The position numbers and the translations under genes are program-made. Shown here piece after piece: positions 19,047-62,497 of a stretch of 64,000 bases of DNA. Below the pieces are notes generated by a model. The model ran no database searches. It worked only from the letters and a program-made list of their open reading frames with translations, and was not told the origin of the DNA. The DNA is taken from NCBI GenBank assembly GCA_035489815.1, contig DATHJH010000032.1, forward strand, positions 32,301 to 96,300. The letters run 5' to 3'. Numbering within the stretch: the stretch's first letter is position 1; the number at the start of each line of letters is the position of its first letter. Source of the DNA: Candidatus Limnocylindria bacterium (GTDB lineage Bacteria > Patescibacteriota > Saccharimonadia > Saccharimonadales > JAGQNK01).

Positions 19047-20465
19047 ATGCTTGCTAAAACAATAATGAAGGGTCTAAATAAAAAGGGCCGCCAGGTCCAT
19101 GACCTTATAGTTGCCCTCATATCATCTAAGGTGTTTTTGGTTGGTTCTTTTGTCTGGTTTGCAGTCCAGGGCCTGTTCTTTGCCATAACCATCAGGGTGG
19201 GCTTGCCGCCGGACGAAAACTACCACCTCTCACTCATAAAGCTGTTTTCAGAACACAGTCCGTCGCCTTTCCTCGCCGATCAAGATGGCTATTTGGCACT
19301 GGGCGAGGTTGTCCACACGCCGTTTTTCCTCTACCACTACCTGATGAGTTTCCCCTATCTCCTCGTAGGCGATTCTGAGTGGGGATACGTTGTGCTCCGG
19401 CTACTCAATCTAGCGCTAGCGCTTGGTTCTATGTACCTGGTCTACCGAATTGCCGGCGAGCTCAAGGTGTCCAAACTGGTTCGTAACCTAAGCATATTCA
19501 TGCTGGTCAATACTTTGATGTTTGTATTTTTGTCTGCGGCGGTCAGCTACGACAATTTATTTATTTTCTTGTCCCTGGCAACTATTCTGTTTCTTCTGAG
19601 GCTGTTAAAGGGAGTTACCGCTTATCGGTTCCTGCTCTTTGGAGTGGCGATGGCTGCCGGTTCTTTGATAAAGGTCAACTTCTTGCCAGTGGCTTTTATT
19701 TGTCTGGCTGTTTTGATTTTCCGGTACCGCAATCGCTTTAGTACTATATGGCCGGCGCTGTCCCACAGCTTTATGGCCAGAAAACGGCTCAACAGTATAC
19801 TTGGCATCGTACTTGGCGTCCTGACCATATTGGTTATACAAAGGTACGGCTACAACGTCCTCAAATACCACACATACGCACCAAGCTGTCCTCAAGTGCA
19901 AACCTTGCAGGAATGTCGCCGTAGCCCGCTGTTTGTCAGAAACGAACACATTAGTCGTACTCCGCTTCGTGCCACTAAAGATCCTTTTGAATATGTCTAC
20001 GACTGGGTGCCGCTTATTCAGGCTAGAACCTACGGAATTTTTGCGCACAGGGAGCTCCCGGCGCTGAAACTCATACTGGCCTGGTCTCAGATACTTATAG
20101 TGCTTGGCGTCGTAGCAATTGCCCGGGTTTGGCGGCGCGAAGACAAGCTTCTGACGCTTACCCTGGGTATCAGCCTGTTTTATGTGGCCATTGTACTGCT
20201 GGAAAACTACGGCGCCTATACGTCTTCGGGCCGGTTTGGGTTTGCGCTCCATGGACGCTATTTGTTTGCTGTCTTGCCGCTCCTGTACGTCCTTGGCAAC
20301 CACTACACCCTCAAACTTCTGCGTGACAACTATACAAAAACGCTATTTCTAGCCGTCACTATTGCCGTATTTTTTGCGGCCAGCCTGCCTACCTTTATAT
20401 ATAAATCATCAGAGCTCTGGTATGCGGACCGGTTCAAGCAAACCAGGACCTACTTACTGCCGTAA
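19047..20465 (+). CDS. polytopic membrane protein, GT-C fold glycosyltransferase candidate, paralog 2
   Basis: 472 aa with more than 10 TM helices. Shares FLYHYLMSFPY and VSYDNL with the ORF at 1928-3445. Confidence 0.6.
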   Translation: MLAKTIMKGLNKKGRQVHDLIVALISSKVFLVGSFVWFAVQGLFFAITIRVGLPPDENYHLSLIKLFSEHSPSPFLADQDGYLALGEVVHTPFFLYHYLMSFPYLLVGDSEWGYVVLRLLNLALALGSMYLVYRIAGELKVSKLVRNLSIFMLVNTLMFVFLSAAVSYDNLFIFLSLATILFLLRLLKGVTAYRFLLFGVAMAAGSLIKVNFLPVAFICLAVLIFRYRNRFSTIWPALSHSFMARKRLNSILGIVLGVLTILVIQRYGYNVLKYHTYAPSCPQVQTLQECRRSPLFVRNEHISRTPLRATKDPFEYVYDWVPLIQARTYGIFAHRELPALKLILAWSQILIVLGVVAIARVWRREDKLLTLTLGISLFYVAIVLLENYGAYTSSGRFGFALHGRYLFAVLPLLYVLGNHYTLKLLRDNYTKTLFLAVTIAVFFAASLPTFIYKSSELWYADRFKQTRTYLLP

Positions 20466-21925
20466 GAATCAGACAATTTAAAGAGTGACCACGAAAGCAG
20501 TACCGTTCCAGCCGCAAACAACAGCAAGAGCAAGGTAACAATCATGCCTGGCAAGCCATTTGCCGCAGTGTCTCCGTGCAGCTTGCCCAGATGGCCCCGC
20601 ATAAGTCCCATGAGGCTGGAAACCCCCAAAGCACAGGCCGCAAGCGTTACCAGCTGGCCCCGCATGTTTCTAAACTGAAGCAGTCCAAAAGAAAACAAGA
20701 GCCCCATGGGCAGCAAGGCTGACAGAAGGTACCTGAAATTAATCGACCCGTACCCAAAGGCAAGTTTAATCTGGATGACGGACACACCAAGCCAGGCCAG
20801 GGCAAATATCGCCAACACACTCCGGCGCTTAGGCCCGCCTATAAGCCCCTTGAGCTCTTTCCTACTCAAAGATAAGCAGCCCGCTATGCAAAAGCTCAGG
20901 ACAGCCAAAGACACCTCCAAATACCGGGCATAGCCGGCATAGACCAGCCCCCACAGTTTGCTCCCCAGCAAAACGTCAGACAAAGACTGAAAGGAACGAC
21001 CCCCGCTATAGTCCAGGGGAGATGACTGGAGCGGGCTGCCATTTGTCTTATAATTCCATAGGTAGTAGAACCATCCGGAAGTAATTGTGATAGCTGCGAC
21101 AACCAGGACGGATACGCCGGCTGTCTGGAATATGACCTTCTTCAAGTTATGCTTGTAACGGATGAGGTAGTGCAGGCCGACGGCCAAAAGATTAAGCCCT
21201 ACAAAAAGTATATATGGCACCTTGGTAAGCATACCCGCGCAGGACAAAAGTACCAGCCACACCAGCAGCTTTTTGTTGGGGCCCTTATATACCAACTTAT
21301 AGCTTAGTATGAGTGAAAGGGTAGAAAACAACACCAGCAGCGGGTCAAGCGCATAGTCCTGGTTAAGCCGGGTAAACCGGTACATAAGGACGCCTAGCGC
21401 AGGCACAGCCACCGCAAACAGCGCCCGACGCCGCCCGGCCATCAGCCAGCCGCCCCAGGCCAGCGCTGCTATACAGCCTACCCCAATTAACAGGTTGATG
21501 ACACGCCCCACACCAATCGCCGCATGCAAGTTGCCGCGCGCCAAAAGGGGACCCACAAACGGCGCATGTACAACATAGAACAAAGGAGGATTTGCAGAAG
21601 CTGCCTGACGGCCAGAATAACCAGACGTGGTAAAGGCCGGGTACCTAAGACCGTCCTCCCACCTGGGTAGCTCCCCATGGTACACGCGCCAGACATAGTC
21701 AATGTGCTGCTTGGAATCGCTGGAGGAAATCCACGGCGTCGCAACCGACACCGTACCAGCAACACCGGCATACATACACACCACACCCAGCAGCCCTATC
21801 AACAAAGCCCTGGGGAAGGTTTTATTACGAATAGTCACGGTGCCGTTTGCCAGTCCCCGTATACGCGAAAAGAGTGTGGAAGGTTGTTTGAGCGGAGTCT
21901 TTTTGACATTTCTCTTTTTTGCCAT
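20450..21925 (-). CDS. polytopic membrane protein, GT-C/ArnT-PMT-like glycosyltransferase candidate, paralog 3
   Basis: About 491 aa from the ATG at 21925 (MAKKRNVKK). The maximal ORF reaches 21985. Many TM helices. Confidence 0.5.
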   Translation of the reverse strand: MAKKRNVKKTPLKQPSTLFSRIRGLANGTVTIRNKTFPRALLIGLLGVVCMYAGVAGTVSVATPWISSSDSKQHIDYVWRVYHGELPRWEDGLRYPAFTTSGYSGRQAASANPPLFYVVHAPFVGPLLARGNLHAAIGVGRVINLLIGVGCIAALAWGGWLMAGRRRALFAVAVPALGVLMYRFTRLNQDYALDPLLVLFSTLSLILSYKLVYKGPNKKLLVWLVLLSCAGMLTKVPYILFVGLNLLAVGLHYLIRYKHNLKKVIFQTAGVSVLVVAAITITSGWFYYLWNYKTNGSPLQSSPLDYSGGRSFQSLSDVLLGSKLWGLVYAGYARYLEVSLAVLSFCIAGCLSLSRKELKGLIGGPKRRSVLAIFALAWLGVSVIQIKLAFGYGSINFRYLLSALLPMGLLFSFGLLQFRNMRGQLVTLAACALGVSSLMGLMRGHLGKLHGDTAANGLPGMIVTLLLLLFAAGTVLLSWSLFKLSDSYGSK

Positions 21926-22095
21926 GCTGTGGAGTAGGATAGCATAAACCTGTGCCACTGATGGCACGTGGATCAGAGCGCACACAGGTAGGCAGCGCCA
22001 TGAGTCAGCCTAGGACTGCTCATAGCGCCAAACCACTGCTGATGGGTCAGTGATAGCCTTTATAGTCCAGGTATAAATATAGTAGAGTACCTGTA

Positions 22096-23418: not shown

Positions 23419-23451
23419 CGTAAGCTTCTAGAGTGTCAGGACAACTTACTC

Positions 23452-23601
23452 TTATCGCCTAGGTAACCAAGCCATCACTACAGCTACCAGAGGTACCGTT
23501 GCCGTAACCCAGCGCCATTCAAACCTCCAACTTATAACGAGCAGAATAAATAGTGCTGTAGCTATGAGGATCACATGTTTTTGCCTCATAAATCCCGTCA
23601 T
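23452..23601 (-). CDS. hypothetical 49-aa two-TM mini-protein
   Basis: Translated manually: MTGFMRQKHVILIATALFILLVISWRFEWRWVTATVPLVAVVMAWLPRR. Not in the ORF track because it is under 60 aa. It lies 11 nt downstream of the preceding ORF, in a low-GC islet. Confidence 0.4.
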   Translation of the reverse strand: MTGFMRQKHVILIATALFILLVISWRFEWRWVTATVPLVAVVMAWLPRR

Positions 23602-23612
23602 GATAGATGTAC

Positions 23613-23849
23613 TTATCTACGCTTTTTAAAAGTATGCCGTAGCTCGTCCTCAAAAATACTACCTGTAAATATAAGTATCACTACCAGCGTTAGCCAAACT
23701 TTATTCTCAAACGCAAAACTAGTTGCAATCAGTACAATTGAGGTAAGACCAAACTTTACTGAAAGCTCTTTCTTTGCTTTAGCTCTTGTGGAAGCAGCTA
23801 CTATTAGCAAGATCACAGCTAGCAAAAATAAACTACTTGATAAGTCCAT
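23613..23849 (-). CDS. hypothetical 78-aa three-TM mini-protein
   Basis: MDLSSSLFLLAVILLIVAAS..., hydrophobic throughout. It lies immediately downstream of the ORF at 23863-24852. Confidence 0.5.
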   Translation of the reverse strand: MDLSSSLFLLAVILLIVAASTRAKAKKELSVKFGLTSIVLIATSFAFENKVWLTLVVILIFTGSIFEDELRHTFKKRR

Positions 23850-23862
23850 GTATCACCCTTTC

Positions 23863-24852
23863 TTAGCACTTATATACCCACGCCACTAGAGGTGCCCCTA
23901 GCCAATAACTTCTATATATTGCAAGGCAGTACCCACGACGAGAGGCTTGGTTGGCAAGAAAAGATACCGTACCTGCGATTGCTGCAGCCTGTGGGAATCT
24001 TGCTGCGCCTAGGGCCGCTGCTGCACCGGAGGTTTCACTAATCCACCTCATGTCGCCTCGATTAAACCAGACTGTTATACCGTGCCATGATCGACTTATG
24101 CGCGGGTCTGCAATAATAGGATATACCACTCCGGGTACATTGTGCTTCACATGTTGGGTTAATGTTTTTCCGTCCGCGGTGAAGTAGGTTTGGATGGCAT
24201 TGCCTTTAGCGTCTTTGGCCCATGGCTTATCAATAGTGAACATAACTTTTTTATTTGCTCCAACGACGACCGCTCCTCCGTCCACTGCGAGCATAATACG
24301 CCCGCCATTCGGCACAGTCACTTTGTAGTCATACTCTGTAGGAGCATTCGGGTTATCTATGACTGTCAGCATGCGTAAGCCGCCGTCTTCTGTTGGCTGG
24401 ATGGCATTGGCAGAGCCATTACCGGAGTCGTAAGTGACTACTCCCGGCGCTGCCTGCTTGGCAAGGGCAGCACTATCTGCACCCGGGAGCTCAATGCTGA
24501 GTTTGTTTTGTCCTTCGGTACCAAAAGTGACACCTCGGTCGGCGTCTTTGGGGATGTCTATGGCTGTGTCATTGGTTGTAGCAGTTAGCGCTGAGTCCGA
24601 ATCACTCTTTGTGGCTACCTGGTCAGAGCTACTCAGGACGCCAGAGACAGTTTGGAGGGCGTTCTTTACCTCTGTGGTAGAGACGTTCTTATTATGGTTC
24701 GTAAGGCCGCGACTTCCAGCCAGAATTGTACCGAGTGGCAGACTGAGGTTGGAAAACGTTGCCGCTACTAGAGACAGCGCAACGAGCCTTAGTTTGTTTT
24801 GTTTTAGGAAGTGGATGTTTTGATGTACTAGGAGTTGCCTGAATTGACCCAT
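23863..24852 (-). CDS. hypothetical secreted protein
   Basis: 329 aa with a signal-peptide-like N-terminus (LRLVALSLVAATFSNLSLPLGTILAGS). No recognisable catalytic motif. Low-GC islet. Confidence 0.6.
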   Translation of the reverse strand: MGQFRQLLVHQNIHFLKQNKLRLVALSLVAATFSNLSLPLGTILAGSRGLTNHNKNVSTTEVKNALQTVSGVLSSSDQVATKSDSDSALTATTNDTAIDIPKDADRGVTFGTEGQNKLSIELPGADSAALAKQAAPGVVTYDSGNGSANAIQPTEDGGLRMLTVIDNPNAPTEYDYKVTVPNGGRIMLAVDGGAVVVGANKKVMFTIDKPWAKDAKGNAIQTYFTADGKTLTQHVKHNVPGVVYPIIADPRISRSWHGITVWFNRGDMRWISETSGAAAALGAARFPQAAAIAGTVSFLANQASRRGYCLAIYRSYWLGAPLVAWVYKC

Positions 24853-24974
24853 GCTCTGTATTCCCCTCGTTGTTTTAATTCACAAAGGAAATAGTACTTC
24901 ATGTATATATGCTTAACAATATGTAAGACTGTTTATTTTAGTGTGGTTTTGACAACTGGGGCCAACACTTCAAA

Positions 24975-25022
24975 AAACTGTACTTTTATTTTGTCCGGCC
25001 GGATATAAATGGAGTACAGTTT
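24975..25022. promoter_or_regulatory. imperfect 48-bp palindrome (candidate operator) upstream of the PaaX/Cas2-fold gene
   Basis: AAACTGTACT-N-GTCCGGCCGGAT-N-AGTACAGTTT. It shares its ends and its centre with the perfect palindrome at 25545-25598. Confidence 0.6.
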
Positions 25023-25033
25023 CAGAGGACATC

Positions 25034-25549
25034 ATGAAAAGAAGCAGGAGCACCAAAGATTTACCAAACTCAGCCCTGGCCTATGTACTGGAGGCCTTGA
25101 TCCCTTACTCTGATGCGAACGTAAAGCTAGCTTTCAAGCCGCACCTATTCTTTAACGACCTTGAGAACATTGCCCGGCAAAAGCAAAGCCTCAGCTACCG
25201 TCGTCAAACTTTACGGAATGCTTTTTACCACGCCAAGCGTAGTGGATTTATTGAGTTTAGTAAGTCTGGTGGCCCACGCCTTACGCGCAAAGGGGAAGCG
25301 TACTTAAAGCCCTATGAGCCAAGCAAGCTTGGCGACTCCGCACGACTCATGGTTATATTTGATATCCCGGAAGAACAGCGAGCCAAGCGTCGCTACCTAA
25401 GGCTCATACTTAGACAGTTAAAATTCAAAATGGTTCAGCAAAGTGTTTGGATAAGTAAGTACGATTGCAAAACGATTCTTCATGATGAGATCGAAGCGTA
25501 TGAGCTGCAGGCTTATGTTCAAATATACGAGTGCGTTCGATTATTATAA
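25034..25549 (+). CDS. PaaX-like / Cas2-fold domain DNA-binding protein
   Basis: 171 aa. The C-terminal RLMVIFDIPEEQRAKRRYLRLILRQLKFKMVQQSVWISKYD matches the ferredoxin-like Cas2/PaaX-middle-domain pattern. The N-terminal half is wHTH-like. Confidence 0.6.
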   Translation: MKRSRSTKDLPNSALAYVLEALIPYSDANVKLAFKPHLFFNDLENIARQKQSLSYRRQTLRNAFYHAKRSGFIEFSKSGGPRLTRKGEAYLKPYEPSKLGDSARLMVIFDIPEEQRAKRRYLRLILRQLKFKMVQQSVWISKYDCKTILHDEIEAYELQAYVQIYECVRLL

Positions 25550-25598
25550 CTGTACTCTAAAAATGTCCGGCCGGACATTTTTAGAGTACAGTTATAAG
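25545..25598. terminator. perfect 54-bp palindrome; candidate bidirectional intrinsic terminator and/or operator
   Basis: 27/27 perfect arms centred on GTCCGG|CCGGAC, flanked by A5/T5 runs. It contains the stop codon of the ORF at 25034-25549 and lies between convergent genes. Confidence 0.7.
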
Positions 25599-25630
25599 AG
25601 ATGACAGCCCTGTCTAAGAGGATCTTGGGG

Positions 25631-28707: not shown

Positions 28708-29538
28708 ATGAAGAAATCAATCACTAAAATAGTCGTTCAGGACACAAACATTGCGCTGCAAGTAGTAGATGGCGAAGATTATATCTGCCTGACTGACATG
28801 GCCAAAAGTATGGGCGGCCCTGCCCTTGTGGAAAAGTGGTTCCGGAATAAAAACACTCTGGAATTCTTAGGCACATGGGAGATTATCCACAACCCTCATT
28901 TTAAAACCCCCGAATTCGGGGGAATTAGAAGTCAAGCCGGTAGTCATAGATTTCTCCTATCAGCGAAACAATGGATTGAAACAACCGCCGCTATAGGCGT
29001 GAGAGCGCAAGCAGGTCGCTACGGAGGCACATACGCCCACAAAGATATCGCTTTTGAATTTGGATCTTGGCTGAGCCCTGAATTCAAGCTTTATCTGATA
29101 AAGGAATTCCAACGGCTCAAGGAAGCAGAGGCGGAACAGGAGCAGTGGAACTACCAACGCTTTCTAACAAAAGTAAACTGGCGGCTACAAACCAGTGCAG
29201 TACAACAAACACTTATACCGATATCATCCTTGCCGATAGGAAAACATGGCATTATTTATGCTAGCGAAGCAGAGTTGTTGAACCTAGCATTATTCGGGCA
29301 AACGTCTAAGGAGTGGAGGAAGCAAAATCCCGCCCTCGTCAAATCCGGCAATATACGGGATCAGGCTAGTATTGATCAGCTCACGGTTTTATCTAATCTT
29401 GAAAGTATCAATTCAATGCTAATTAGCCAAGGTATGGATAAGGCCGAGCGGTTTGAGAAGTTGCGTATGGAGGCAGTAAGGCAGCTCCAAGCAATCGTAG
29501 GCGCCAATCTGAAGCTTATGCCTAGCGATGACAAGTAG
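28708..29538 (+). CDS. KilA-N domain-containing protein
   Basis: 276 aa. The pattern YICLTDMAK...WFRNKNTLEFLGTWE...GGTYAHKDIAFEFGSWLSPEFKLYLIKEF is typical of KilA-N DNA-binding proteins. It is a low-GC single-gene islet on the opposite strand to its neighbours. Confidence 0.8.
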   Translation: MKKSITKIVVQDTNIALQVVDGEDYICLTDMAKSMGGPALVEKWFRNKNTLEFLGTWEIIHNPHFKTPEFGGIRSQAGSHRFLLSAKQWIETTAAIGVRAQAGRYGGTYAHKDIAFEFGSWLSPEFKLYLIKEFQRLKEAEAEQEQWNYQRFLTKVNWRLQTSAVQQTLIPISSLPIGKHGIIYASEAELLNLALFGQTSKEWRKQNPALVKSGNIRDQASIDQLTVLSNLESINSMLISQGMDKAERFEKLRMEAVRQLQAIVGANLKLMPSDDK

Positions 29539-60470: not shown

Positions 60471-61172
60471 ATGCATGAGTTTATAGAGCAGGCTACTGAA
60501 AGAAGGAGAATCTACGACCACAACCGGAATCAGGCCAAACTGTTAGAAACTCAGGACGTGCTTGAAAAGCAAAGAGCTTCAGAAGCACGCGAGAGGGAGT
60601 TGCAGGTTGCTGCCAGGTTCCAACCGCTTATTGCTGCTACCGTCAAGGAAGCTGCAAAAGATATTGCTCCCATATTGCCAGAAGCGACTGCCAATGTAGC
60701 TCTTTGGCGTCAACCTAAGCGTGTTGTGACCAAGAAGCTTGGAGTTGCCACATTACTTTTCGGTGTAAGTTATAGGGTGACCTATGAGGAGCAGGAGCCC
60801 AAACCGGCTTGGCTCATTAGGCGTCATATTGCCTCACCAAGAGGTATTGGCTTTGGCCCTTACTTCGGAAGTATTCCTGATTTCCCTCAACACGAGATTG
60901 AAGAAACGGGACTCGTGGTGGACGGGACCGGCCAATTATTAACTTATGAAATTTGCCATGGCACCGGTAACGTTTCTGATTATGAAGTACGCAGAACATA
61001 CCAGAAGCTCAGTAGTTCACCGTCCAGTCCTTTTACGGCTGCAAGCTATCGGCCAGCTACTGATGCGGAAATTGCTCCTCTGGGCAGTATTACACCCCAT
61101 ACGGATGTCAACGGTGTACCGATTGACATATCGATGTGGCGTAATCGACTACTGTCCCTAATTCCTGCGTAG
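60471..61172 (+). CDS. hypothetical protein
   Basis: 233-aa ORF on the opposite strand to the T4SS cluster, with lower GC. No motif recognised. Confidence 0.5.
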   Translation: MHEFIEQATERRRIYDHNRNQAKLLETQDVLEKQRASEARERELQVAARFQPLIAATVKEAAKDIAPILPEATANVALWRQPKRVVTKKLGVATLLFGVSYRVTYEEQEPKPAWLIRRHIASPRGIGFGPYFGSIPDFPQHEIEETGLVVDGTGQLLTYEICHGTGNVSDYEVRRTYQKLSSSPSSPFTAASYRPATDAEIAPLGSITPHTDVNGVPIDISMWRNRLLSLIPA

Positions 61173-61351
61173 AATTCTCATCGGTCAGCTCCTCGCCGAC
61201 CAGGTAGCCTACTCATTAAGCCCCTGGCTTGTCCAGGGTCTGACTCCTTACGGTTTTCTGCCCGGCGTTCGTTTTATTCGTTATTTTTTGCTCTAACCTT
61301 GGCTTTGTCTGGCCGACTCTTCGCCATGGCCTTTTGTTTTTTATCTTTCGC

Positions 61352-62497
61352 TTACTTCACGCGCGGTGATGCTTGATCGACTTCGTCGCCAGGGATTATG
61401 GTAATAATCGGCCCCCTATGTGGCTTACCAGAAACTGCTGCGCCCTGCTGAGCCAGCCTATTCAGTTCGTCGTCTTCCGTATGGTACAGTTTATCAAATT
61501 GACTTACCAATCTTGCTCTGGAAGAATCTGTTATGCCCGAGTCAAACTCTTCCATGGGTATACTCAACTGGGATGAGAGGAATCCCCGAACTGCATTTTG
61601 TTCCATCATAGTGCGAAAGGCTCCCGCGTCAAATGCCTGAGCTGTCTCCGCGGCCTTATCGGCTGCTGCCTTGGTTAGTGGGTTGACCTGGTCTCTAATG
61701 CCTTGCTTGATGCGTAGGATTTGTGCAGGGTCAAAGCCGTTTTGAGGAGTTTCCGCTCCTTGTTCGTGTCCGTTGGGGTAGAGTTCGTTATGCGGAGTGG
61801 GGGCGTCCTCAACACGGATAACAGTTGCCCGCCCCGTACTGCCAGTTTCTTTAGGATACCCCAATTGCTCTTCGCCGTTCGTAAGCATATGCTGGCGTTC
61901 TTGGTATTCTCTCTCAACTTTTCTTATTGATTTTTGTGTTGTATGAGGATGGTCTCTAAGCGATCCATTTTCATCTCGCCACAATGATTTTCCTGTTTCA
62001 GGGTCAATGTCGTAGACACCGTGCTGATCTACTGCCTGAGTAGCGCGGAGTGTGCCCAAAGTATCGCTTCGACGGAAGGCCTTTCGAGACCTTCGCCACT
62101 CCTTCCCTGAAGACGGCCAGCGGCCCTCCTCAAGGCTGTAGTTTTTGCGCTCTCGTGCAGCAGTATTCCAGTCAGGGCCCTCATAATCCTGGGTAGTTTT
62201 CTCCGGCTGCGTCCCGGGCCTGTCTCTGAGCTGCCGGCGCCGGAGTATGGCCCGAAGCCCGGTAACGGCTGTTGCTTCACCGGCCACTACTGCCGTAGGT
62301 TCCGTAGCCACTGCTATTTTATCTTGGTCGGTCTGAGGGCCGGCGTCAGCCCCGCTCTGCTGGCGGAGTTGATCTCTCAATGCGTCTGCTTCTGGTGAAG
62401 GTGCCTTGTTACCAACGTCCCAATACTCTCCATAAGCACCCAGGTCTGGTTCTGCGGAAGTTGGACGAAGATTTTTTTCGCTTCTTCTTTCTGACAT
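61352..62497 (-). CDS. hypothetical, largely disordered charged protein
   Basis: 381-aa ORF, rich in R/E/D/Q/G. No motif recognised. Confidence 0.5.
   Translation of the reverse strand: MSERRSEKNLRPTSAEPDLGAYGEYWDVGNKAPSPEADALRDQLRQQSGADAGPQTDQDKIAVATEPTAVVAGEATAVTGLRAILRRRQLRDRPGTQPEKTTQDYEGPDWNTAARERKNYSLEEGRWPSSGKEWRRSRKAFRRSDTLGTLRATQAVDQHGVYDIDPETGKSLWRDENGSLRDHPHTTQKSIRKVEREYQERQHMLTNGEEQLGYPKETGSTGRATVIRVEDAPTPHNELYPNGHEQGAETPQNGFDPAQILRIKQGIRDQVNPLTKAAADKAAETAQAFDAGAFRTMMEQNAVRGFLSSQLSIPMEEFDSGITDSSRARLVSQFDKLYHTEDDELNRLAQQGAAVSGKPHRGPIITIIPGDEVDQASPRVK

Follow-up and report, generated by a model that had tools for sequence, protein, structure and literature searches.

A closticin-type precursor with a novel predicted C-terminal module in a probable Saccharibacterium

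Introduction

What is a short, compositionally unusual gene block doing inside a bacterial glycosyltransferase cluster? We asked this of a 64,000-nucleotide stretch of a metagenome-assembled genome (MAG; assembly GCA_035489815.1, contig DATHJH010000032.1, positions 32,301 to 96,300), referred to below as the window. An initial annotation had drawn attention to a 329-residue secreted protein, two hydrophobic mini-proteins encoded behind it and a divergent 171-residue protein with a Cas2/PaaX signature, and had compared the arrangement to toxin/immunity or bacteriocin-like cassettes. Our results support the reading of the 329-residue protein as a precursor of the closticin type whose C-terminal module is new, from what is probably a Saccharibacterium. 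Taken as a whole, we consider it likely that the locus combines a Sec-exported precursor of the closticin family, release of its C-terminal module at D249-P250, immunity through a 78-residue membrane protein, membership of a polymorphic family and PaaX-type control. To our knowledge, closticin 574 has so far been regarded as something of a curiosity, labelled an 'unusual class II bacteriocin', and has neither a structure nor a Pfam model; it was reportedly described by Kemperman et al. in 2003, and the bacteriocin of Clostridium butyricum MIYAIRI 588 by Nakanishi and Tanaka in 2010.

Results

A predicted closticin-type precursor

The gene for the 329-residue protein (23863..24852, minus strand, stop codon included) encodes a candidate bacteriocin or polymorphic-toxin precursor whose core, the part up to residue 250, is shared with known bacteriocin precursors. 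A tblastn search of the core against annotated phages and plasmids matched a 'putative closticin' of Paenibacillus phage BN12, the plasmids pCBM588 of C. butyricum (8,060 bp) and pNF1 of C. beijerinckii (10 kb), small B. cereus plasmids, 16 Streptomyces plasmids and a Rhodococcus 'TNT domain-containing protein'. Aligned with hhalign, the family profile matched the pCBM588 precursor over 155 columns (probability 98.9%, E 1.4e-17), ending at ADP; BLASTP of protein P0001 against the BN12 protein gave E 6e-19. In the pCBM588 and pNF1 proteins (317 and 325 residues) a signal peptide precedes the core (...DKPWAYDANG...), which leads through an FP[VI]VADP junction into a tail with two Cys. This tail contains KCAGSIAWALGS...KIKKYI.ALGG, the published closticin 574 fragment (PMC7690686), which is 50% identical to the BN12 tail (E 8e-9). 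The link to closticin 574 runs through these two plasmid proteins, which PMC5894183 equates with it: that paper describes the MIYAIRI 588 bacteriocin gene and closticin 574 as homologs of the pNF1 gene and identifies the last 83 residues with the active peptides. Closticin 574 is made as a 309-residue pre-protein with a 27-residue signal peptide and yields an 82-residue peptide after secretion and processing; a primer for the mature form of a homolog, CLB, starts at Pro (PMC10888436).

The window protein has the same order of parts. Residues 1 to ~47 (24712..24852, minus strand) form a Sec signal peptide region in which the basic residues K17, K20 and R22 precede a hydrophobic stretch of about 25 residues; aligned relatives show AxA-type cleavage sites. 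The protein therefore has a predicted Sec-type signal like that of closticin 574-type precursors, as judged from sequence features and aligned relatives. Residues 51-250 (24103..24702, minus strand) are a conserved all-beta pro-domain or carrier domain that lacks cysteine in all 63 non-redundant copies, with the tails bearing a Cys pair. It ends in the junction motif YPIIADP (residues 244-250; 24103..24123), where the invariant D249-P250 is the putative processing site. The remaining 79 residues (23866..24102) are the presumed mature bacteriocin (80 residues with P250) and belong to tail class 0, with the pattern W-x-W-x-G ... ET ... Gly/Ala-rich stretch ... G-x-C-L ... C-terminal Cys and two invariant cysteines, C309 and C329 (C59 and C79 in tail numbering). 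An Asp-Pro bond thus stands directly ahead of the tail; closticin 574 is likewise reported, by Kemperman and colleagues, to be 'hydrolysed at an Asp-Pro site', and the start of the CLB primer agrees with this, as do the validated relatives, whose active C-terminal peptide starts at this Pro.

In the AlphaFold2 model (overall pLDDT 83.7) the N-terminal helix has low pLDDT, the pro-domain exceeds 90 and is mostly beta strands, and the tail, at lower confidence, comprises a strand, a helical hairpin and a beta hairpin. Foldseek found no match to this model in the PDB at E<1e-3, and the diphtheria-toxin and capsid rows in its list were discarded as noise (TM-score <0.3). Sequence searches of the PDB with the protein and with the family profile also gave no match, and Pfam, NCBIfam, PADLOC and PHROGs returned nothing above threshold for any of the three minus-strand proteins. 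In BFVD only two uncharacterised phage proteins were hit, both large, with domains that the core weakly resembles. The initial annotation's signal peptide is borne out by these data; its verdict of an unknown fold without assignable motif holds for Pfam, NCBIfam and the PDB, but the protein belongs to a known bacteriocin family that has escaped modelling.

The tail is the best conserved segment relative to the ortholog in a sister genome (86% amino acid identity, dN/dS 0.03). A search of a library representing 1.8 billion proteins returned one full-length relative and one stand-alone tail, besides two repeat-protein matches that were false positives. A tail-profile search gave two proteins and thus no evidence that this tail is used behind other carriers. 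We also considered a glycine-zipper or pore-forming tail, an idea that found weak support: there are seven small-xxx-small motifs, but hydropathy is low.

One carrier domain, many tails

A homolog search with the 329-residue protein returned about 130 proteins, one of them a 100% identical public MAG protein; those with labels were mostly from Saccharimonadales MAGs, with some from Streptomyces and Kerfeldbacteria. Overall, some 200 relatives with a conserved core were found, mostly in Saccharimonadales and also in Streptomyces, Bacillus and Clostridium. The loci surveyed, 2 from a genome scan with a single query sequence and 79 from metagenomes, held 84 copies of the gene.

Similarity within this family breaks off sharply at the junction. 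Among 119 BLASTP alignments, 37 end exactly at query residue 250, although the subjects run on for another 45-130 residues. The junction motif has the general form YP[VI]x[AS]DP, and Y244, P245, D249 and P250 are invariant in 114 sequences. Beyond ADP we distinguished at least 14 mutually unrelated tail classes, of which class 0, that of the window, is the largest; others include DUF2599, DUF6973 and numerous two-Cys peptides rich in Trp and Gly. A large number of tails are hydrophobic; in some, of classes 2, 4 and 5, a transmembrane (TM)-like segment starts right after ADP. The paralog P0003 from the same MAG is 70% identical to the window protein up to residue 250 and unrelated beyond it. 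DNA homology ends at the ADP codon for L008, the locus of P0003, and 16 nt before that codon for the paralog locus L011.

A conserved N-terminal part joined to unrelated C-terminal domains past a sharp junction is the hallmark of polymorphic toxins, and the family shows other features of such systems. Orphan modules occur as truncated tails (L024, L054), as stand-alone proteins made of a signal peptide and a class 0 tail (P0156, P0159) and as non-cognate small membrane genes in arrays; within the window only the 49-residue gene described below fits as an orphan. Recognised toxins are also present in the family, as the closticin-type peptides and as the TNT domain (PF14021, E 2.6e-19) of a Rhodococcus plasmid protein that has the core, a YPILADP junction and a long linker; the window tail itself is no recognised toxin. 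A 902-residue Streptomyces DNRLRE protein ends with the core, FPVVADP and a tail that by eye resembles the longer class 0 tails, and a 58-residue two-TM gene follows. On the high-GC contig L064 (3231-5732), an 833-residue protein has a long N-terminal extension before the core and junction and a 107-residue helical tail, followed by a 105-residue two-TM gene. These two proteins indicate that the carrier is used in much larger proteins too. In sum, the sequences describe a candidate polymorphic bacteriocin/immunity system in which one carrier domain serves many swappable C-terminal toxins, each with its own downstream gene.

Three further loci of the survey deserve mention. In L019 (5001-5980), from the same metagenome, a class 0 paralog matches residues 1-329 with a longest open reading frame (ORF) of only 164 residues, possibly a pseudogene or an assembly error, and an 80-residue three-TM gene still follows. 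A cassette truncated by a contig end (L095, 112-3432) lies beside a resolvase and a TraG/type IV secretion system coupling protein, a hint of conjugative carriage for some cassettes. The perfect 120-nt palindrome at the contig end of L071 (1-120) is most likely an assembly artefact.

Downstream membrane proteins and candidate immunity

The precursor gene is followed after 13 nt by the gene for a 78-residue small membrane protein (23613..23849, minus strand), which is preceded by a GGGTG ribosome-binding site, and after a further 11 nt by that for a 49-residue two-TM protein (23452..23601, minus strand) of a W-x-W ... T-x-PL family. They have 2-3 and 2 hydrophobic segments, respectively, as expected from the tightly packed hydrophobic mini-proteins first noted here; the 78-residue protein also gave a weak, sub-threshold match to DUF7649. 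All three minus-strand genes are under purifying selection relative to the sister locus (dN/dS 0.13 for the 78-residue and 0.30 for the 49-residue gene, rough values because dS is saturated), and both mini-ORFs are real genes.

Such partners are common in the family. In the majority of low-GC loci the precursor stop is followed, at some 30 nt or less, by the start of a 50-150-residue protein that has 2-4 hydrophobic segments, and the downstream protein varies together with the tail. Across 1485 locus pairs, every pair with similar first downstream proteins had similar tails (10/10), and none of the 1383 tail-dissimilar pairs had similar downstream proteins. Near-identical cores with different tails are followed by unrelated downstream proteins, as in the window versus L011 (core 295 bits) and in L036 versus L021. 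First-position proteins of one class recur at later positions behind other tails: that of L009 in L003 and L018, that of L043 in L003, that of L027 in L038 and that of L033 in L023. Co-variation of the downstream gene with the toxin domain, another trait of polymorphic toxins, is therefore present, and protection is the function we infer from it.

Within this pattern the 78-residue protein is the candidate cognate immunity protein: its only homolog, 75% identical, is encoded directly behind the precursor of the orthologous locus, which has the same tail. Homologs of the 49-residue protein are found in L003, L014 and L018, as the first gene behind a different tail subtype in L018 and as a later gene in the other two, which marks it as a candidate additional or orphan immunity protein. 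Both small membrane proteins are probably immunity factors, going by their positions and relatives. The validated clostridial bacteriocin genes are followed by a multi-TM DUF6442 protein of 94-100 residues. On pCBM588 (L098, 1945-2229) we noticed an unannotated 94-residue multi-TM ORF, 28 nt past the bacteriocin gene, which resembles the DUF6442 protein of pNF1 and is likely an immunity gene that annotation overlooked; the bacteriocin gene is itself directly preceded by a thioredoxin gene.

Composition and genomic setting

The four ORFs were found as first described, and the block does sit in a glycosyltransferase cluster, flanked by GT2, GT4, a weakly GT1-like 440-residue protein and PMT_2. 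Its proposed low GC held in part. Raw GC dips at the edges only (0.41-0.46), and the middle of the 329-residue gene is at genome level (0.52-0.53). At third codon positions (GC3) all four genes are low: 0.29 for the 78-residue, 0.42 for the 49-residue, 0.48 for the 329-residue and 0.49 for the 171-residue gene, against a mean of 0.612 (s.d. 0.063) for 44 long window ORFs and 0.62-0.68 for the flanking glycosyltransferase genes. Hence, the compositional anomaly is real and exceeds chance.

In the sister genome the cassette is found at the corresponding site, flanked by the GT2 gene and the 440-residue gene, with a precursor 68-69% identical, flanking DNA 75-79% identical and extra small membrane genes. 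The insertion is thus not very recent. A 52%-identical precursor ortholog sits in an unrelated neighbourhood, so that cassette location varies over a longer time scale, in keeping with the atypical codon composition. Upstream of the precursor, a conserved 5' region (24853..24974, minus strand; presumed promoter and leader) could be aligned among the window, L003, L011, L012 and L008, and about 125 nt of it are identical in L008. A sigma-70 consensus scan of this region found no promoter-like site. Neither tandem or spaced repeats, CRISPR arrays, tRNAs nor Rfam families were found within the 64-kb window.

A truncated PaaX-type protein

The 171-residue gene (25034..25549, plus strand) diverges from the minus-strand trio. 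Its product matches PaaX_M (PF20803; E 5.7e-16, 58.8 bits versus a cutoff of 24) and Cas2 (E 4e-5) in Pfam, confirming the Cas2/PaaX signature that had been read from its C-terminus; its other half, a winged helix-turn-helix (wHTH), has no Pfam match. The AlphaFold2 model shows this wHTH (helices 14-69, wing strands 73-83) and then a ferredoxin-like domain. Over its full length Foldseek matched Rv0674 (3kfw) and E. coli PaaX (8a39) at E 4-6e-4 and probability 1.00; Cas2 structures match only the last ~70 residues. The protein therefore has the wHTH and the central Cas2-like domain of PaaX and ends right after the latter, lacking the C-terminal helical effector-binding domain. We rejected a CRISPR/Cas2 reading because the best full-length fold matches are PaaX and the 64 kb contain no cas1 and no array, as the initial annotation had already said of CRISPR arrays. 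The protein has 33 homologs of 143-202 residues, those labelled being from Saccharibacteria, in unrelated neighbourhoods.

Palindromes shared with sister cassettes

Two palindromic elements bracket the PaaX-like gene. Element 1 (AAACTGTAC-N-TCCGG/CCGGA-N-GTACAGTTT; 24975..25022, unstranded) lies 11 nt before its ATG and about 125 nt upstream of the 329-residue ATG. Element 2 (25544..25597, unstranded), a perfect 27+27 nt palindrome, overlaps its stop codon and lies 34 nt past the GT2 stop. The palindrome has the form ACTGTAC-N30-GTACAGT, in full AACTGTAC-N-TCCGG/CCGGA-N-GTACAGTT with centre CCGGCCGG, and these are the only two copies in 64 kb (expected, 0.01). The elements enclose a unit of ~570 bp that is absent from the sister locus.

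The same element, with identical arms, recurs 119-131 nt upstream of at least four sister cassettes: the ortholog (L003-7) and three paralogs with other tails (L009/10, L011, L012). This distance matches that of about 125 nt in the window. In six ACTGTAC-element copies, only the outer arms and the centre are conserved and symmetrical, and complementarity is not maintained in the spacers, which favours a protein-binding site over a hairpin. The candidate site has two inverted half-sites, as in a PaaX operator, and flanks the 171-residue gene. Since a palindrome that brackets this gene also stands upstream of sister cassettes, the 171-residue protein is a plausible trans-acting repressor that may bind the palindromes and control the cassettes. 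The dedicated regulator suggested earlier thus gains a link through the shared palindrome but not a conserved adjacency.

In five further contexts, palindromes likewise lie on both sides of a PaaX-like gene or before it; their centres are of a similar CCGG type, and their arms are gene-specific. On L091, from the same metagenome as contigs attributed to the window's MAG, palindromes (2280-2325 and ~2876-2916) flank the PaaX-like paralog P0126; their centre GTCCGGCCGGAC is as in the window and their arms, CATTCTACCAC and ACGTATCAC, differ. This suggests that several regulator/site pairs of distinct specificity may coexist in one community or genome.

Other features of the window and its host

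Just past a methyltransferase gene, a plus-strand ORF (28708-29538, GC3 0.48) encodes a 276-residue phage-type transcription regulator (phrog_2657, E 5.8e-52). At the counterpart position, the sister-cassette contig L005 has KilA-N Pfam matches and L003 has none called, so this site is a variable insertion near the cassette. Two more low-GC3 ORFs at 60471-62497 (0.43 and 0.47) may mark another compositionally foreign patch. Adjoining the PMT_2 glycosyltransferase, a 511-residue multi-TM protein (20450-21985, minus strand) without Pfam match evolves unusually fast, being 48% identical to its syntenic counterpart when its neighbours are 71-94% identical.

Proteins identical to those of the window are deposited as 'Candidatus Limnocylindria bacterium', a label at odds with the family distribution. 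Relatives of the precursor are also labelled Verrucomicrobiae and Bacillota; where labelled, the precursor and PaaX-like families are mostly from Saccharimonadales/Saccharibacteria. The taxonomic labels of these soil MAGs look unreliable, and the host is probably a Saccharimonadia bacterium of the candidate phyla radiation (CPR), that is, a Saccharibacterium.

Discussion

We propose that the precursor encoded by the minus-strand operon is exported by Sec and belongs to the bacteriocin family of closticin 574. After export, the beta-rich pro-domain of ~200 residues would be split from the C-terminal ~80 residues at Asp249-Pro250, by analogy with validated relatives, freeing a disulfide-bonded and presumably antibacterial module of a type unrelated to closticin. 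The 78-residue membrane protein would shield the producer, and the 49-residue one probably confers immunity against a related tail subtype from neighbouring cells. The 171-residue protein, a minimal PaaX-type DNA-binding protein, may bind the ACTGTAC-N30-GTACAGT palindromes and so control its own and sister cassettes. The comparison to a bacteriocin-like or toxin/immunity cassette, with which the study of this locus began, gains support from pro-domain homology to validated bacteriocins and from the polymorphic-toxin signature.

Several results weigh against this proposal. The tail is only moderately hydropathic (maximum Kyte-Doolittle value 1.09), and in searches of the tails alone against Pfam there was no match, the window tail resembling no Pfam family. 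The mature closticin peptide (KCAGSIAWAIGSG...KIKKYI) has no counterpart here either: in a blastp-short comparison of the closticin fragment and the BN12 tail with 163 tails, none reached E<=0.05, and the window tail, being unrelated to that peptide, is a new module on a known scaffold. CLB of B. altitudinis, itself a member of the family, had no activity in a cell-free assay (PMC10888436). As for immunity, several high-GC loci (e.g. L045, L050 and L062) have no obvious downstream TM gene, the pairing of the 78-residue protein with the window tail comes from a single comparison, and the co-variation of tails and downstream genes could partly reflect simple linkage.

Might the family instead consist of non-toxic surface proteins, with the beta domain displayed, for example for attachment of an epibiont to its host, and the variable tail docked to its own membrane-protein anchor? 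The hydrophobic tails, with TM-like starts after ADP in classes 2, 4 and 5, would suit such a role, as would a downstream partner that is in every case a membrane protein and changes along with the tail, and the weak resemblance of the core to domains of two large uncharacterised phage proteins. Yet the family holds two peptides of demonstrated bacteriocin activity and a TNT toxin, secreted tails stand alone without cargo, and orphan tail fragments occur along with arrays of non-cognate small membrane genes. Moreover, a conserved exposed domain with a variable supposed anchor is the reverse of surface-antigen variation, and we judge this explanation improbable. Still more remote is the notion that the four ORFs are unrelated hypothetical genes sharing a compositionally odd spacer and no common function. 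It draws on the lack of curated family matches for the three minus-strand proteins and is countered by tight operon spacing, purifying selection on all genes, a gene order that recurs in dozens of loci and homology to validated bacteriocin precursors; we give it hardly any credence.

The regulatory part of our proposal faces a more serious competitor, in which the PaaX-like gene has nothing to do with the cassette and forms with its palindromes a mobile or excisable unit, comparable to a gene flanked by repetitive extragenic palindromic (REP) elements, that landed in a pre-existing hairpin, the terminator of the upstream glycosyltransferase operon. The ~570-bp unit is missing from an otherwise collinear sister locus, where the single palindrome looks chimeric (left half similar to element 2, right half to element 1), as if from recombination between copies. 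Element 2 lies 34 nt after the GT2 stop, PaaX-like genes elsewhere have unrelated neighbourhoods, and the GC3 of the gene is low. In addition, the gene is absent from all 84 other cassette loci, so that synteny does not mark it as dedicated to the cassette; L008 has the identical promoter region without the palindrome; the palindrome analysis covers 6 distinct copies only; and a position at gene ends also fits a terminator. Against a mobile unit stand the fixed distance of 119-131 nt at which the palindrome precedes four other cassettes on other contigs, inner spacers that are not kept complementary and the lack of a T-run, which make the element a poor hairpin or terminator, a copy number of 2 in 64 kb unlike that of REP elements, and an outer-arm spacing that matches known PaaX operator geometry. 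We regard the mobile unit as the less likely of the possibilities for this gene, though one to be taken seriously.

The data indicate that the closticin pro-domain is a widespread carrier, present in Saccharimonadia, other CPR groups, Streptomyces, Bacillus, Clostridium, phages and plasmids, and that its cargo comprises 14 or more unrelated C-terminal modules, a TNT NADase among them. If our proposal is true, ultra-small epibiotic bacteria own a simple toxin arsenal that requires the Sec pathway only, numerous small antibacterial peptides, along with the membrane immunity proteins that match them, await description, DUF2599 and DUF6973 acquire a candidate role, and the Asp-Pro junction becomes a practical rule for mining such toxins. 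Our literature searches on DUF6973, DUF2599 and Saccharibacteria toxins found nothing relevant. More speculatively, and with considerable doubt on our part, the closticin pro-domain could be the carrier of an undescribed large family of Sec-dependent polymorphic toxins that soil Saccharibacteria use as their chief weapons against other bacteria and have in common with their actinobacterial hosts, the paralogous cassettes of this lineage making up a regulon under a minimal PaaX/Cas2-fold repressor without effector domain that acts through a common palindromic operator. The PaaX-like mini-regulator with its gene-specific flanking palindromes is a separate lead on CPR gene regulation.

Among known systems, CRISPR Cas2 shares with the 171-residue protein a ferredoxin-like domain with a (V/I)FDIPE strand, here C-terminal; the window protein differs in its fused N-terminal wHTH and in its setting, among glycosyltransferases and away from any cas1 or array. 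PaaX, the phenylacetate-catabolism repressor (E. coli W, 8a39), and Rv0674 (3kfw) likewise begin with a wHTH and continue with a Cas2-like dimerisation domain. E. coli PaaX is an autorepressor whose binding site is TGATTC-N27-GAATCA (PMC9493321); the candidate site also has two inverted arms ~30 bp apart and flanks its own gene, as with autoregulated paaX. Unlike PaaX, the 171-residue protein has no C-terminal ligand-binding (phenylacetyl-CoA) domain and no paa genes nearby, and its palindrome has an additional conserved centre, TCCGGCCGGA.

The precursor is closest to closticin 574 of Clostridium tyrobutyricum ADRIAT 932 and to the pCBM588 bacteriocin, with which it has in common a signal peptide, a homologous ~200-residue pro-domain (...PWAxDAxG...), the [YF]PxxADP junction, a C-terminal two-Cys peptide of ~80 residues (active in theirs), a total length of 309-329 residues and a small multi-TM gene next downstream. 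It differs in having a C-terminal module of unrelated sequence and a downstream protein outside DUF6442. Its host is probably a member of the Saccharimonadia rather than a Firmicute, the gene lies on a large contig and not on a small plasmid, no thioredoxin gene is adjacent, and a PaaX-like gene and a palindrome are present.

At the level of the family, the nearest parallel is with the polymorphic toxin systems (CdiA-CT/CdiI, Rhs, LXG, MafB), said to be treated by Zhang et al. in 2012 and by Jamet and Nassif in 2015. They likewise join a conserved N-terminal carrier at a sharp junction to many unrelated C-terminal modules, TNT included, and they, too, come with a protective gene downstream that co-varies with the module, with orphan modules and with several paralogs in a genome. 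The closticin-type family differs in its predicted export by plain Sec, without a dedicated secretion system, and in a carrier that is a small unannotated beta domain. Most of its modules are ~45-130 residues long and often hydrophobic two-Cys peptides, and most of its immunity candidates are membrane proteins of 50-120 residues.

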